Part shown: positions 52,171 through 58,520 of the stretch, piece by piece
Layout of the letters: each line of letters begins with the position of its first letter
Numbering within the stretch: position 1 is the first letter of the stretch
Assembly: GCA_000004985.1 (NCBI GenBank)
Contig: GG738877.1
Direction: 5' to 3' (one strand)
DNA length: 64,000 nucleotides
Source: Naegleria gruberi
Lineage: Eukaryota
Program-made: the position numbers and the translations under genes
The notes under the pieces: model-generated
Database searches by the model: none
Told to the model about the DNA's origin: nothing
What the model saw: only the letters and a program-made list of their open reading frames with translations

Positions 52171-54249
52171 TTGCATACTATTCGAAATATGATATTAATT
52201 TATAATAATACTATAATGATGATCATAATAATAATAATAATAATAGGATTGAAGGATCTGGGTGCCCGAATAGAGAAAGATGCCAAATCACCTGGATTTC
52301 TATCACCTCGAGGAATGGCAAGTCCAGCCACTGATGTTTCGCCCAAAACGCCAAGACGAGGTACCATTCTACAACAAAATGAAAATGGAGAACCTATTCG
52401 AATGTTTGAAGTGGATGATTATGAATTACAATTTGTGGAAATGATGGAAGTTCCAGAGAGTAGAGATTTATTTCTCACCCATTTACAATCTTTTTCAATT
52501 CCTGAAGTTATTTCATTCCTAAAGGATATGTGGAAATATAAAGAAAAGAGGAAGAATATTTACAATGGAACAACTATGAAAATTGAACATTCAACAAGTG
52601 TAGAAAATTTACAAAGTAGTTTTGCATCAACGTTTTCATTACAGAGAAAAACAGTTACTGAATTACACAAATTAGCTCAAGATATGATTGGATTGTATAT
52701 TGAAAATGATGCTCGTCTTCAACTTAATATTTCATCAGAGGTGTCATCCTTGTTATTGAAAAGATGGGGAGCTATCAATCATATTAAGAATACAGTGGAA
52801 GTTAAACAGTCATCATTTGCCAAGAGTGCAAAATCGTTTTTTAATAGTGAAAGCAATGAAAGTGACATGTTTTCAATTGATCTGGATACCATTAAACTTC
52901 CTAGTACAACAACTACTACAATGGCAAGTTCGGTTGGAACTTCATACACATCAAGTAATAACAATCCACTTACAAACACCATCGTTGCCGGTTCACTTGA
53001 TATGGATACGATTTTGGACGAAACAGTGACAGATAAAATGGAGAGATCCTCCTCTGTACACAGTATGAGCACGCCCAATTTAGATGAAGATTCTGGGTTT
53101 TTTGTCAAGTGTTTGGCACATGCACTCCCGAATCAAATTCAAGAAACTGTATTGAAATTATGTCAATTGTTTGACAGTGTAGAATTTTATGTATATAATG
53201 ATCTAGCTTTGGAGCACTTTCCAAAGTTTAAAAAGAGTAAGGAAGTGAAAAATTTTCTTCTTCAGAAAGGAGAAGAATTCACAAAGAAAATCTCAATCAA
53301 CATGAAACTAGGTTATGAACTAGATATCAGATATAAGGCAAAGGATTTCGTAAATCCATTGATTACCGATAAGGATATTTACTTTACAATCATGCTCTGC
53401 ACAGATGCCTATAAGAGTGAATGGCAATTATTAGGTGAAAAGGTAATTGAAGAAAAATATCTGAAAACTTCCTATCAGGCATACATTTCCAATCAAAAGT
53501 TTTTACTTGGTGAGGAAAATTCAAATTCCAATATGAAATTGGCCAAGATTGACATTCAATTACCATTTCCTGTCGATGAAGCATACAAAGTGGCACTGGA
53601 TAGAAAGTAAGTTTTCCCTGAAATTATTTCATTAATCCCCAATAGAGCTAAATTGAAATGTGACCCAATCACTCTTGGTGATTTTGATACATACAAGGTT
53701 GATGATTTGGATGTGAAACGACCACTATCTATTGCCTTCTCTAGTGAAAGTTATAACATTGGAAAATTGTACAAGACAAGAGAGGCAACCTTTGTTCAGA
53801 CTCTTGTTTTTGATAGAAAAACCAATTGCTATATCAATATTGCCAAGACGGCTGAATTTGAGGAAAAGAAAAAGTCCAAAGATAAGATACCAGTTGACTT
53901 ACTCTATGCCTACATGTTTAAGCATAGTGGACCAAACAAGTGCACTCTGACCTATATTTATTTTGGAGATTTAAAACTCTCACTGGATACAGATATGTTT
54001 TTCAAACGATTTATCAAGGATAGAGCCAAAGCATTGAGCAAGGGATTCTCCAAGATACTAGCCGAAAGAACCAGTTACGGAAATCACTCATGGAATGAGA
54101 GTGTTGATGATGTTTTCTGTCTGCAGGAATGCTTAGAAAAGAATATGAAAGCCTATCCACAAAGATCATGGTTCGACGAGTATAATGCCTACCTGGAAAG
54201 AAGCAAGACAATGGAAAGAGCCAATTCCAAACAAAATTTGAATAATTAA
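52171..54249 (+). CDS. RGS-domain protein (one clear RGS domain plus a second RGS-like region). Exons 52171..53606 and 53646..54249. The true start is uncertain (possible micro-exon ATG at ~52076 or an internal Met at ~52315)
   Basis: RGS signature SRDLFLTHLQSFSIPEVISFLKDMWKYKEK ... LAQDMIGLYIENDARLQLNISSEV. The intron gtaagttttcc..ccccaatag joins the ORFs in frame. The region upstream of 52250 is AT-rich and intron-like. Confidence 0.55.
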
Positions 54250-54435: not shown

Positions 54436-55308
54436 ATGACTGAATCATCACTGCAACACCAACTTTACCAACATTGCATTAAAAATCTTGATCGGGAATG
54501 TGCACCACTAATAACCATCGAATCATGTGGAGAGTATTTAAAATTTTTCCAAAACAATTGTGATACTGCCTATCTATTCCTAGTGACTTATCCTTCCGAA
54601 ATTGCCACAAAAACAGGAATGAAATTTTATTTGGCAAAGAGAATTCTTGAGGATGCCTCGTTGAACTTGATTGTTTGTCAAGGGAGAGTGGATTTATTGT
54701 TAAAATTAATGCATGAAACTGGATTGAATTATGAATTTTCCTATCAGTGTCTATTGGAATTTAAATGGAATTTTCCTGAAGCAAAAGCCAAAGTTGTGAA
54801 AATGAAGAATAATGGTGAGATACCACCTCGAGGTTTTCTCAATTATCAACCACCACAACAGGCAATCAATGTTTCAGTACCAAATAGTTCAGTACAAGTG
54901 CCAACAATGATCAGTCAACAACCTAATATTCCACACCAACAAGCCATTAATCCACAATCCCCTCCTCAGTTTGTGCAAATAATTCAATCCAATACCTCAC
55001 CTTTTCAAAGTGTAAAGCAAGAAACAAATGAAAGAACTTTCACTTCAAATACAAGCTTACACACTTTGGATGTTAAAAGTGAAGCTGAGAGTTCTACACA
55101 ATCCACAACTTCAAAGCAATGCCAATATCCTGGCTGTACAAATGAAATTGAAAAGAGTAGAAAGAAATACTGTGCTGAACATGGTGCTAAACCATTAAAA
55201 AAGGAAAGTATGAGTGTGGACTTTGTAAAATGTCAACACGCTGGTTGCACCAATCCAATAGCCAAGTATAGAAAAAAATATTGTGAACTACATGGAAATA
55301 AAAAATAA
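54436..55308 (+). CDS. Protein with TAP-C/UBA-like domain(s) and two C-terminal CxYPGCTNxIxKxRKKYCxxHG zinc-knuckle-like motifs
   Basis: KLMHETGLNYEFSYQCLLEFKWNFPEAKAKVVKMKNNGEIPPRGF resembles the NXF1 TAP-C region (...[37 protein letters not shown]). The duplicated motifs are CQYPGCTNEIEKSRKKYCAEHG and CQHAGCTNPIAKYRKKYCELHG. Confidence 0.5.
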   Translation: MTESSLQHQLYQHCIKNLDRECAPLITIESCGEYLKFFQNNCDTAYLFLVTYPSEIATKTGMKFYLAKRILEDASLNLIVCQGRVDLLLKLMHETGLNYEFSYQCLLEFKWNFPEAKAKVVKMKNNGEIPPRGFLNYQPPQQAINVSVPNSSVQVPTMISQQPNIPHQQAINPQSPPQFVQIIQSNTSPFQSVKQETNERTFTSNTSLHTLDVKSEAESSTQSTTSKQCQYPGCTNEIEKSRKKYCAEHGAKPLKKESMSVDFVKCQHAGCTNPIAKYRKKYCELHGNKK

Positions 55309-55348: not shown

Positions 55349-57619
55349 CTATCTTCTAATATCGTCCATTTCTCCGCTACTGTTAGAAATATTGTCAGAA
55401 TGTCTATAAGCACCTGCTTCTCTTGGCATATACGGATCTCTTCCATTGAGCATTCCTTGATGGTGGTGGTGATGCATCATCATGTAAGGTTGATCATAAT
55501 AGGGAGGTATTGGAGGTGGATAGAAAGATGATGTTGATGGCATTGGTTGACCAGGTAATGGTTGCATATATCTTTCATCAATATGTGGTTGGTGATGGTG
55601 ATGTAAAGGATGACCAGTAGGATACATAGAAATGTGTGAAGAAGGAACATCAACAGGACCAAAGAAACCATTAGGTTGCATTGGTCCATTAGTTGGAGAA
55701 TGATCATAGTATGGTTGCATTCCTCTTCTTGATGTTCCTGATTTATCATACGGAGTATATCTGTAACTTGGTGGCGTATGACCAGACTTTCTAGAACCGT
55801 TGTTGGATGGAACTATTGGTTGGCTATTAGGAATTGGTGCTTGTCTGGTTGATGTTTCTGTTGGAGGCATACCTCTATGAGGAGGAACTCTTCTTGTCAT
55901 GTCCATTTCACGTTCTCTTTGTTTTGTGAAACTGAAACTTCCTTTTGGCATGGCTCTTCTAACATCATGAGCAGCAAATTCCTTACATAAAACTCCAGAA
56001 TGGAAATCATCCAAAACTTTGGTGGCACTATCTTCACTTGTATAGGTAATAAAAGCAAATGGTGTTCTTCTATTGAGAATTAATTGCAAGTCCTCAATAG
56101 TACCATGTTTGGAGAAGTAGTCATGAACAGCCTGTTTAGTAACTTGAGGTTGTAAACCACCAACAAAAATTCTGCGCTTCTTATCAAAAGAAGAAATGGT
56201 ATCCTTCTTAATAGTTGGTGAATTGTTGGAAGAGGCTGATGAGCTATTACCAGACCTTGATAAGTCTGTGGAGCTGGCTCCATAAATCATGTCAGATTGT
56301 GTATCTGAGTTGTGAATATTGTTAGTGAATAATCTTTCATCATCAACCATTCTTGAGGAAGAAGAAATGGTTGAGGCGTGTGTTGGTATATCAACACTAT
56401 CAATTTTACATCCTTGAGATTGGGCAACTTGGCAATCAATTCTGTGGTTTCCAATCATGAATGGATGTTCTTTATGGTATGATAGAACCTTCTTGGCAAT
56501 ACTTTCATCAGAGAAGGTAACAAAGCCAAATCCTCTCGATCTGCCATCCCACTTTTTCATAATGACACAGTGTGAAATTGGTCCATAGTTATTTGGTGAA
56601 CGAGAGAAGAAATCAATGAGCTCTTGTTCTGATGTAGTTTCCTTCAGCCCTCCAACGAAAATTCTTCTGTTAATAAACGAAGGATTATCTGGAGCATCAC
56701 GAGACAAAAGATTACAACCACTACTTGGGCTGTCAGCAAAGTCTTGCATCATATTGGAGGAGGATGAGGAAGAATTAGAAAGGGAGGATGGTGTCATTAG
56801 ATTGGTTGGTGTGTTACTATTGCTACCACCACCATTGCTTGAGGTGTTGCTTGGTATGCGAATTCTTGGAAGACGAGGCAAAACAGTGTTGGAGGTAATT
56901 TGCTTAACAGAGTCAGTTGAAAGTTCTGTTGGGGAAGAGCTACCCTTCTTTCCATTGGAAGTATTGACCTCGCCATGATGTTTACTGTTATTTACTGTTT
57001 GGTGGTGCGATGGTGTGGAAGAAGAAGAGGAACGGGTAGATTGTTGGACATTGGAAACAGATGAGCTATTACCAGAAGACAAAGGCTGTGCAGTAGAAGA
57101 TGTATTGGCAACAATAGTGGACGAACGAATATTGGACGTTGAAGTAGTTACAACAGAGAGAATATTTCTGAAAGAGTCTGTTGCACCTGGTGGTGGTGTT
57201 TGTTGATCGTCCTTCTTGAAAGCTACTTGTTGTTGGGAAGAAGTAGCACAAGAGGTGGTAGTTGCTGCACTCAAGTGGGTTGGAGAAATATCATTTGAAT
57301 GTTTAGCGTTCATCCTCTTGAATTGATGGTAAAAGTGAAGAGGGTCGTTCACAAGTATTGACTTGTCGATAACTGTTGGTGAGTTATCATTGTTGGAGGA
57401 GGAAACAGAGGTGGAGTTTGTAGTAGTAGCGACTGTTGAGAGCGCAGAACTAGTTGGTGAGTGGAGAGAGGAGGAAGAATTGGAATGTGTGAATGTAGCA
57501 GCATCATGAGCAACAACAGTTGATGGTTGGGAATGGCCTAGAGGAGGTGTATTGGTAGTGGTATTATTTGGTTTTGTACAATTGTGAATGAGAGAATAGT
57601 GGGAGGAGAGTTTTTTCAT
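55349..57619 (-). CDS. Two-RRM RNA-binding protein (hnRNP/Musashi/DAZAP1-like) with S/T-rich N-terminal and P/Y/H/M-rich C-terminal low-complexity regions. The likely start is MKKLSSHY at 57619
   Basis: RRM1 is RRIFVGGLKETTSEQELIDFFS...RGFGFVTFSDESIAKKV. RRM2 is RRIFVGGLQPQVTKQAVHDYFSKHGTIEDL...FAFITYTSEDSATKVL. Confidence 0.8.
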   Translation of the reverse strand: MKKLSSHYSLIHNCTKPNNTTTNTPPLGHSQPSTVVAHDAATFTHSNSSSSLHSPTSSALSTVATTTNSTSVSSSNNDNSPTVIDKSILVNDPLHFYHQFKRMNAKHSNDISPTHLSAATTTSCATSSQQQVAFKKDDQQTPPPGATDSFRNILSVVTTSTSNIRSSTIVANTSSTAQPLSSGNSSSVSNVQQSTRSSSSSTPSHHQTVNNSKHHGEVNTSNGKKGSSSPTELSTDSVKQITSNTVLPRLPRIRIPSNTSSNGGGSNSNTPTNLMTPSSLSNSSSSSSNMMQDFADSPSSGCNLLSRDAPDNPSFINRRIFVGGLKETTSEQELIDFFSRSPNNYGPISHCVIMKKWDGRSRGFGFVTFSDESIAKKVLSYHKEHPFMIGNHRIDCQVAQSQGCKIDSVDIPTHASTISSSSRMVDDERLFTNNIHNSDTQSDMIYGASSTDLSRSGNSSSASSNNSPTIKKDTISSFDKKRRIFVGGLQPQVTKQAVHDYFSKHGTIEDLQLILNRRTPFAFITYTSEDSATKVLDDFHSGVLCKEFAAHDVRRAMPKGSFSFTKQREREMDMTRRVPPHRGMPPTETSTRQAPIPNSQPIVPSNNGSRKSGHTPPSYRYTPYDKSGTSRRGMQPYYDHSPTNGPMQPNGFFGPVDVPSSHISMYPTGHPLHHHHQPHIDERYMQPLPGQPMPSTSSFYPPPIPPYYDQPYMMMHHHHHQGMLNGRDPYMPREAGAYRHSDNISNSSGEMDDIRR

Positions 57620-58520
57620 TGTGGTGGTGGTAAATGTGTTAAAAGGAAAGTGTTGAGAGCAATATAAAAATCTATCAATGTGAAATTTCACAGTAGTGGA
57701 GGTTGGATTATAGTAGTGCAAATATATAATTTAGCAGCTATCTAGCAAGAGGTGAATGGTGAGTGGAAAGAGGCGTATCTAATCAATAGAAAGAGAAAAT
57801 GGAGGAAAATAACGTTGTTTACACAAGTCAAGATTCAATATATGATTTTACAAAAATTACTATTAAGCTGATGATGAATAGTCCTTTGATGATTATTCAA
57901 TAATCTACACTACAAGTAGGTTATTACAGATGATTAATTCGCACTTGTTACTATTACTACTCTACTAGTATTATGAGTGATAAACAATGACGAACAAACG
58001 ACAACCAACAACAACAACAATATGAAACAAAAACAGCAGCAACAATCTAGAAGCGCGTTTCTACGAACAACAAAAATGTTTCAGCAGCAAGCAGCGGCGG
58101 TGATGATGATGATGGTGTTGTACAGCAGGACCAAGAGTGTCGTCGTACACGCGAATGTTGGTGATGGTTGGTGGTTTGTTGATATTTTTTTGTGTGATGA
58201 TGAAATGAATTTATTCGGGCTTGGGTTTTTTGTGAGGGTGTTGTTGGAGAGTTGTTTGTTGAGGCGGTCGTTGTCGTTGTACACAACCACAAGAACTGGA
58301 AGGGTAAATGTGTGGTGTTCTTTCTTTTGAGTTGTTGTGGTTTTGGACTTATTGGGGTGTTGAGGAAAATGTAGTGGTAAGTGGTTCAAATATAAATTGT
58401 TTTTTATTGATAATTATATGTAATTTCCAATGGGTTGTTCAGGAAAAAAAAGAGGTTCCTTAGGCATGTAAAGAGGTAAAGAGCCTTAATATGAAAAGAA
58501 TAACAAAGAATTAAAAGAAG

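Follow-up and report, generated by a model that had tools for sequence, protein, structure and literature searches.

A TAP-C domain joined to a pair of Cys/His knuckles in a small protein of heterolobosean amoebae

What does a TAP-C domain, usually taken as the signature of NXF mRNA export receptors, do in a protein that ends in two Cys/His knuckles? The question is raised by a gene at 54436..55308 on the plus strand of a 64,000-nucleotide stretch of Naegleria gruberi contig GG738877.1 (assembly GCA_000004985.1; this whole stretch is the window below). The layout of the encoded protein, a helical N-terminus followed by the TAP-C domain, a variable linker and the two knuckles, is common to all orthologues and, as judged by sequence comparison, combines known types of module in a new way found only in Heterolobosea. 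The gene product is regarded here as a small adaptor of modular build that occurs only in heterolobosean amoebae (Naegleria, Willaertia).

A conserved single-exon gene with an NXF-type TAP-C domain

The open reading frame (ORF) list and the sequence delimit a complete single-exon gene of 290 codons plus stop, which begins at the first in-frame start codon past the upstream stop. The concern of a preliminary description of this DNA, that an intron might have spoiled the gene model, is removed by the orthologous genes of N. lovaniensis (885 bp, 294 codons plus stop) and N. fowleri (888 bp, 295 codons plus stop), which are of matching length and have no intron, as the gene span equals the codons plus stop. 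A homology search identified three relatives, a metagenomic protein of 98% identity and the N. lovaniensis (44%) and N. fowleri (41%) proteins. The metagenomic relative is encoded on a 3.1-kb ENA metagenome contig with 98.9% nucleotide identity over 3.1 kb, with a synonymous divergence (dS) of 0.041 and a nonsynonymous divergence (dN) of 0.007. When 1.84 billion representatives were scanned exhaustively by HMMER with a tandem-knuckle profile, Willaertia magna KAL9644536.1 and further metagenomic orthologues were added, so that one protein per annotated Naegleria species, one from Willaertia and three metagenomic orthologues (species not known) have been recovered.

The domains evolve at unequal rates, as dN/dS between N. 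lovaniensis and N. fowleri amounts to 0.12 for the N-terminal helices, 0.09 for the TAP-C domain, 0.46 for the linker and 0.16 for the knuckle module. With 0.16 versus 0.09, the knuckle module is about as constrained as the TAP-C domain, and this sequence comparison places it under purifying selection (dN/dS ~0.16). That the gene is a chance ORF or mis-modelled is a negligible prospect; its sole support is that the exact window protein (54436-55305) was not found in a public collection of 15 billion sequences, where the copy from the source species or strain appears to be unannotated. Against it stand at least four taxa with an orthologue, dN/dS values of 0.09-0.16 for the individual domains, matching single-exon lengths and synteny, and the conservation data refute it. 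Database names of the orthologues are limited to 'hypothetical protein' or 'TAP-C domain-containing protein', and public databases already precompute their TAP-C and CxC6 hits; the domain content itself is thus not a discovery.

The TAP-C (UBA-like) domain comprises residues 86-135 (54691..54840, plus strand), including Cys105, Trp111 and a C-terminal GEIPxRGF tail. Pfam TAP_C (PF03943) matches residues 87-134 with 48.6 bits versus a gathering cutoff of 21.3, the orthologues score 47.6-62.1 bits, and phmmer against PDB sequences matched the human TAP UBA (1oai) and Mex67 UBA domains. The model predicts a three-helix fold with a C-terminal extension packed on helix 1, which superimposes on 1oai with a root-mean-square deviation (rmsd) of 1.4 A over 59 residues. 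NXF UBA domains head the structural matches. Trp111-Asn112 aligns with the W-D of the human N-W-D loop, and N. fowleri carries N-W-D. This loop is functionally important in NXF proteins; a literature search on the W594 mutation did not find a supporting paper. The GEIP tail is common to the protein and human TAP. Cys105 aligns with Cys623 of ctMex67, the sole cysteine in the aligned ctMex67 UBA sequence, which sits in the FG-nucleoporin (phenylalanine-glycine repeat) pocket (PMC4498709). The pocket Cys is conserved, as is the W-[ND] loop. With the domains of NXF1 (TAP), Mex67 and Nxf2 (1oai, 4wp2, 2khh, 6opf) the unit shares an above-cutoff profile score, the fold, the pocket Cys, the loop and the GEIP tail, and it is a genuine NXF1/Mex67-type TAP-C domain. 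The resemblance noticed earlier has hence turned into a real domain, but one that does not directly precede the knuckles, from which a linker of about 90 residues separates it.

The protein is nevertheless no NXF receptor, from which it differs by the absence of RRM, LRR and NTF2-like domains and by its internal TAP-C domain, preceded by two UBA-like units. LRR and NTF2-like domains were not found by Pfam at E values up to 10, and 290 residues leave no room for them. Membership among the NXF/Mex67 mRNA export receptors was rejected owing to the lack of the LRR and NTF2-like (p15/Mtr2-heterodimer) domains.

Residues 1-135 are predicted as a run of seven helices that form three overlapping UBA-like units, the last of which is the TAP-C domain. 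The first two units (residues 1-85; 54436..54690, plus strand; helices 1-4 and part of helix 5) have sub-threshold sequence matches only (UBA_4, UBA_8 and TAP_C, 12.7-23 bits), and an internal profile comparison among the three units gave no significant repeat signal. Three successive units nonetheless raise the idea of a ubiquitin receptor, with the units acting like the UBAP1 SOUBA or the Mex67 UBA and the knuckles providing a second contact with ubiquitin, DNA or a substrate. This is an unlikely reading, as the only unit with a significant signal is of the TAP_C type, the NXF UBA domains are the closest structures, and the knuckles are without a match to the ubiquitin-binding NZF or UBZ fingers in Pfam. 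M-G-F/Y is the canonical ubiquitin-binding loop of UBA domains and, as read from the sequence, is not evident in any of the units. With UBAP1 SOUBA itself (4ae4), a ubiquitin-binding solenoid of seven helices in three overlapping UBA domains, the identity is 12% and the rmsd 3.6 A, and the last unit here is of the TAP-C type.

The linker (residues 136-225; 54841..55110, plus strand) is rich in Q, S, P, T and N and probably disordered, according to its composition, its poor conservation and its dN/dS of 0.46; its length varies from 43 to 94 residues among the orthologues. Despite this fast evolution one or two [VI]-K-x-E islands are kept, in N. gruberi V193-K-Q-E196 (55012..55023, plus strand), in which all Naegleria sequences keep K194 and E196, and V213-K-S-E216 (55072..55083, plus strand) with an invariant K214. 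Such psi-K-x-E islands are enriched over composition shuffles (2 observed versus 0.03 expected, P=0.0004), as they are in 4/5 orthologues. We take the islands to be a SUMO-consensus-like pattern; islands of this kind are typical of nuclear regulators, and their presence is consistent with a nuclear protein.

A tandem knuckle module and its relatives

The C-terminus holds knuckle 1, CQYPGCTNEIEKSRKKYCAEHG (residues 229-250; 55120..55185, plus strand), and knuckle 2, CQHAGCTNPIAKYRKKYCELHG (residues 266-287; 55231..55296, plus strand), joined by a conserved 15-residue spacer, A-K-P-L-K-K-E-S-M-S-V-D-F-V-K (55186..55230, plus strand). Translation confirms the two 22-residue motifs with C-x4-C-x11-C-x2-H spacing that had been described at the C-terminus; to call them near-identical was somewhat generous, as they share 15/22 residues and 45/66 nucleotides. 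A six-frame translation of the 64-kb window contains these two strict matches to the spacing only, compared with 0.02 in base-shuffled windows. The eight ligand positions (C229, C234, C246 and H249; C266, C271, C283 and H286) are invariant, and the R-K-K-Y run and the spacer are conserved in the orthologues as well. In four aligned Naegleria-type sequences A251, P253, L254, K255, M259, V261, D262, F263 and K265 of the spacer are invariant, while P0004 and the Willaertia protein have a similar pattern in which A251 and V261 vary. The distance from copy to copy is exactly 37 residues in 8/8 sequences, and this fixed register suggests that the knuckle pair may be one rigid two-zinc unit. The module (residues 226-290) has an isoelectric point of 9.4 and a net charge of +9, which ranges from +8 to +12 in the orthologues.

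The preliminary description found no named zinc-finger family for the knuckles. This is true in part only, since the whole protein passes the gathering cutoff of Pfam CxC6 (PF18721) with 31.3 versus 27.5 bits. The cutoff is passed only because two partial matches add up: single copies, with 23.0 bits for knuckle 1 (model positions 11-34) and 23.2 bits for knuckle 2 (positions 10-35), stay below it, and the match covers positions ~10-35, i.e. ~25, of the 66 of the family.

The CxC6 match lends some support to a sequence-specific DNA-binding or chromatin protein, either a transcription factor or a domesticated transposase DNA-binding module. In such a protein the knuckles would read DNA, and the role of the UBA-like half would be to bring in partners or to anchor loci at the pore. 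The CxC domains of KDZ transposases have been hypothesised to be readers of DNA or chromatin; a weak resemblance to the Mcm10 finger and to WRC and the psi-K-x-E islands typical of nuclear regulators add to this side. Against it, the coverage of 25/66 positions is partial, a transposase domain was not found in the protein by Pfam, and there is a single copy of the gene, which in three species lies beside a syntenic RRM gene, all features that, with the definition of CxC6 taken from Pfam coverage and secondary citations, set it apart from the CxC6 of KDZ transposases, to which the likeness is the alignment of each knuckle at ~23 bits. Knuckle arrays beside bacterial housekeeping genes moreover reach the same 30-39 bits, so that the match does not point to a transposon origin. 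A DNA or chromatin protein is therefore improbable, and a KDZ-transposon origin as the primary reading was rejected, given the missing transposase, the single-copy syntenic gene and the partial CxC6 coverage.

The preliminary description had left room for a match to a well-characterised zinc-finger class, and no such match was obtained. EsV-1-7 (PF19114), the repeat of the Ectocarpus IMMEDIATE UPRIGHT family, resembles the knuckle in its tandem arrangement and its C-x4-C ... [KR]-[KR]-[YF]-C-x2-H pattern, but differs in lineage and partner domains, in its score (8.3-15.8 versus 25 bits) and in the loop between the second and third Cys, which is 11 residues here versus 14-16 in the Pfam-verified repeats of P0007. 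Zf_WRKY19 (PF24906) scores 12.5-16.0 versus 27 bits, and the H-G-G-G after the fourth ligand is absent; the WRC match is likewise sub-threshold. The Mcm10-type zf-primase (PF09329) scores 15.9-22.7 versus 28.8 bits, and the top Foldseek match, the Mcm10 zinc finger 3ebe, is non-significant (E 4.2), although it coincides with these sub-threshold matches. The likeness to the Mcm10 CCCH finger is confined to the back half, x11 followed by C-x2-H after an aromatic residue, with all scores below significance, and is a lead only. The front half of the Mcm10 finger differs by a longer spacing between the first two Cys. To classical C2H2 fingers (C-x2-4-C-x12-H-x3-5-H) only the C-x-x-x-G-C front half aligns (GLI, KLF5, FOXP3), as the back half here is C-x2-H.

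Other searches gave little. PDB searches with tandem and single-knuckle profiles returned only C2H2 front-half matches and spurious TALE-repeat hits, with SBP-domain and Mcm10 structures not among the matches; word-seeded homology searches with the knuckle module alone or with diverse tandem knuckles returned nothing, and tblastn against phage records gave only matches of E~0.8.

The exhaustive HMMER scan on the other hand recovered tandem arrays of the same knuckle beyond the orthologues. These array proteins are bacterial, phage-like and protist metagenomic (P0008-P0010, P0013, P0014, P0017 and P0019), located for example at L002 876-1433 (P0010), on the same 26-kb contig (P0013), at L006 6001-6480 (P0014) and at L005 598-1431 (P0019). 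P0010 and P0013 share their contig with bacterial L31, RF-1, L25 and MetK genes, another array lies within a phage-like run of small ORFs and yet another in a further prokaryotic context. The arrays share the x4/x11/x2 spacing and the consensus C-x3-G-C-x-x-P-[IV] ... [YFL]-C-x2-H with the knuckles of N. gruberi, and differ in having two to four copies at variable spacing, no TAP-C domain and other genomic contexts. The x11 spacing is present in 44/59 extracted knuckles. As arrays on bacterial and phage-like contigs (C-x4-C-x11-12-C-x2-H) score 30-39 bits with CxC6, the match indicates a generic knuckle and not a transposon origin; the CxC6 model seems to collect a knuckle that extends from prokaryotes to eukaryotes and is unrelated to KDZ transposons. 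One further recovered protein is an EsV-1-7 repeat protein, and P0012, P0015 and P0018 were discarded as false positives (a tetraspanin, a SEA-repeat protein and C2H2 fingers).

Profile alignment by hhalign, in which the comparison sets had been retrieved with the Naegleria profile so that the scores are not independent of the search, gave 98.3% probability (score 51.5, 28 columns) for the heterolobosean knuckle versus the tandem arrays, 96.1% (score 36.2, 27 columns, with a 5-residue loop insertion) versus EsV-1-7 repeats and 88.6% (score 24.9) versus Zf_WRKY19 repeats. The negative control, C2H2-type fingers with only the C-x-x-P-G-C front half in common, scored 21.9 over 15 columns. On these profiles the links to the arrays and to the EsV-1-7 repeats hold, while that to Zf_WRKY19 is marginal, because 24.9 is barely above the control. 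Separately, the 326-residue MMETSP transcript product P0011 has knuckles of the x11 spacing and, after them, true Zf_WRKY19 repeats (85.5 bits), which hints that the knuckle families are evolutionarily continuous. The knuckle is of a widespread type, named in databases yet uncharacterised.

Proposed docking at the nuclear pore and its alternatives

How could these parts work together? Tentatively preferred, with somewhat less than an even chance of being correct, is a nucleic-acid adaptor that docks at the nuclear pore. Each knuckle would use its own three Cys and one His to hold one zinc, and the basic, aromatic knuckle pair would bind nucleic acid, with RNA favoured as the cargo because of the TAP-C context. 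The TAP-C domain would dock the protein on FG-repeat nucleoporins as in NXF1 and Mex67, and domain and knuckles together would keep a nucleic-acid cargo at the nuclear pore or accompany it there, possibly under SUMO-dependent regulation in the nucleus as suggested by the psi-K-x-E islands.

Several points weigh against this function. Binding is deduced from pattern and precedent, and the cargo may be RNA or DNA. The Mex67 UBA also binds ubiquitin and Hpr1. The AlphaFold2 model of the knuckle module is marginal and of low confidence (pLDDT 64), and no solved structure matches the module by sequence or fold (PDB, Foldseek); with a weak model and no structural match, zinc and nucleic-acid binding are read from the sequence pattern alone. 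The TAP-C fold moreover has precedents of two kinds (PMC4498709; 10.1101/609693). In NXF1 and Mex67 it binds FG repeats; in Drosophila Nxf2 the pocket of the UBA is occluded and thereby lost, and a partner helix, from Panoramix, is bound in place of FG repeats (10.1101/609693).

This second precedent could apply here, with the TAP-C domain as a protein-protein clamp on a partner helix and knuckles that are structural or protein-binding, without pore docking or nucleic-acid binding. The conserved pocket Cys and W-[ND] loop and the strong, conserved positive charge of the knuckle module make such a clamp quite improbable.

Mex67/NXF1 was not clearly found in N. gruberi in an older survey (PMC2873481) and is weakly conserved outside opisthokonts (PMC3032688). 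In view of these reports the protein might even be a minimal NXF-independent RNA export adaptor, in which the knuckles would hold the RNA and one or more of the TAP-C/UBA-like units would give the FG contacts, a thought with a very slim chance. Duplicated FG-contact units of TAP reportedly suffice for TAP-mediated export, as is said to have been described by Braun et al. in 2002. If true, a deep-branching eukaryote would export its mRNA by different molecular means.

Precedents for such domain arrangements exist in Discoba, where the TBC-type RanGAP candidate TbGAP has an N-terminal NXF1-like UBA and TbMex67 combines a CCCH finger with a UBA (PMC12774637). Like the Naegleria protein, TbGAP has an NXF-type UBA outside the canonical layout and TbMex67 has one with a Cys3His finger; unlike here, the UBA of TbGAP is paired with a TBC domain. 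Taken as a whole, the initial interpretation of the locus is partly supported.

Genomic surroundings and implications

Convergent with the gene, on the minus strand at 55349-57721, a 790-residue ORF encodes two RRM domains (95.5 bits) and long low-complexity regions rich in S, T, N, H and P; this two-RRM gene is the syntenic downstream neighbour in N. lovaniensis and N. fowleri. Upstream, two adjacent ORFs of 479 and 198 residues, about 40 nt apart on the plus strand (52171-53610 and 53653-54249), may together form a single gene that a short intron interrupts; the 479-residue ORF has a weak RGS-domain match (20.2 bits) below cutoff. In N. lovaniensis and N. fowleri the place of this upstream neighbour is taken by a DnaJ gene. 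At the left end of the window, about 55 copies of CAAACC at 1-332 and about 72 copies of CCCAAA at 1803-2236 (98% and 96% matches) form a telomere-like (TTTGGG)n repeat tract, with the C-rich strand at the left end. The first 2 kb owe their GC content of 0.23 and their extreme skew to it. These repeats suggest that the window begins at a chromosome end and that the second block is interstitial.

With respect to the knuckle, the module is a clean two-copy and strongly conserved example of the C-x4-C-x11-C-x2-H type, a type met again in the EsV-1-7 developmental regulators of brown algae, in clusters associated with transposases and in the arrays of bacteria; a structure obtained here would inform all of them. 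With respect to the organism, N. gruberi is a free-living relative of the brain-eating amoeba, and its TAP-C domain is joined to another, putative cargo-binding module; beside the trypanosome proteins, this is further evidence that the pore-docking domain has been put to lineage-specific uses in Discoba.
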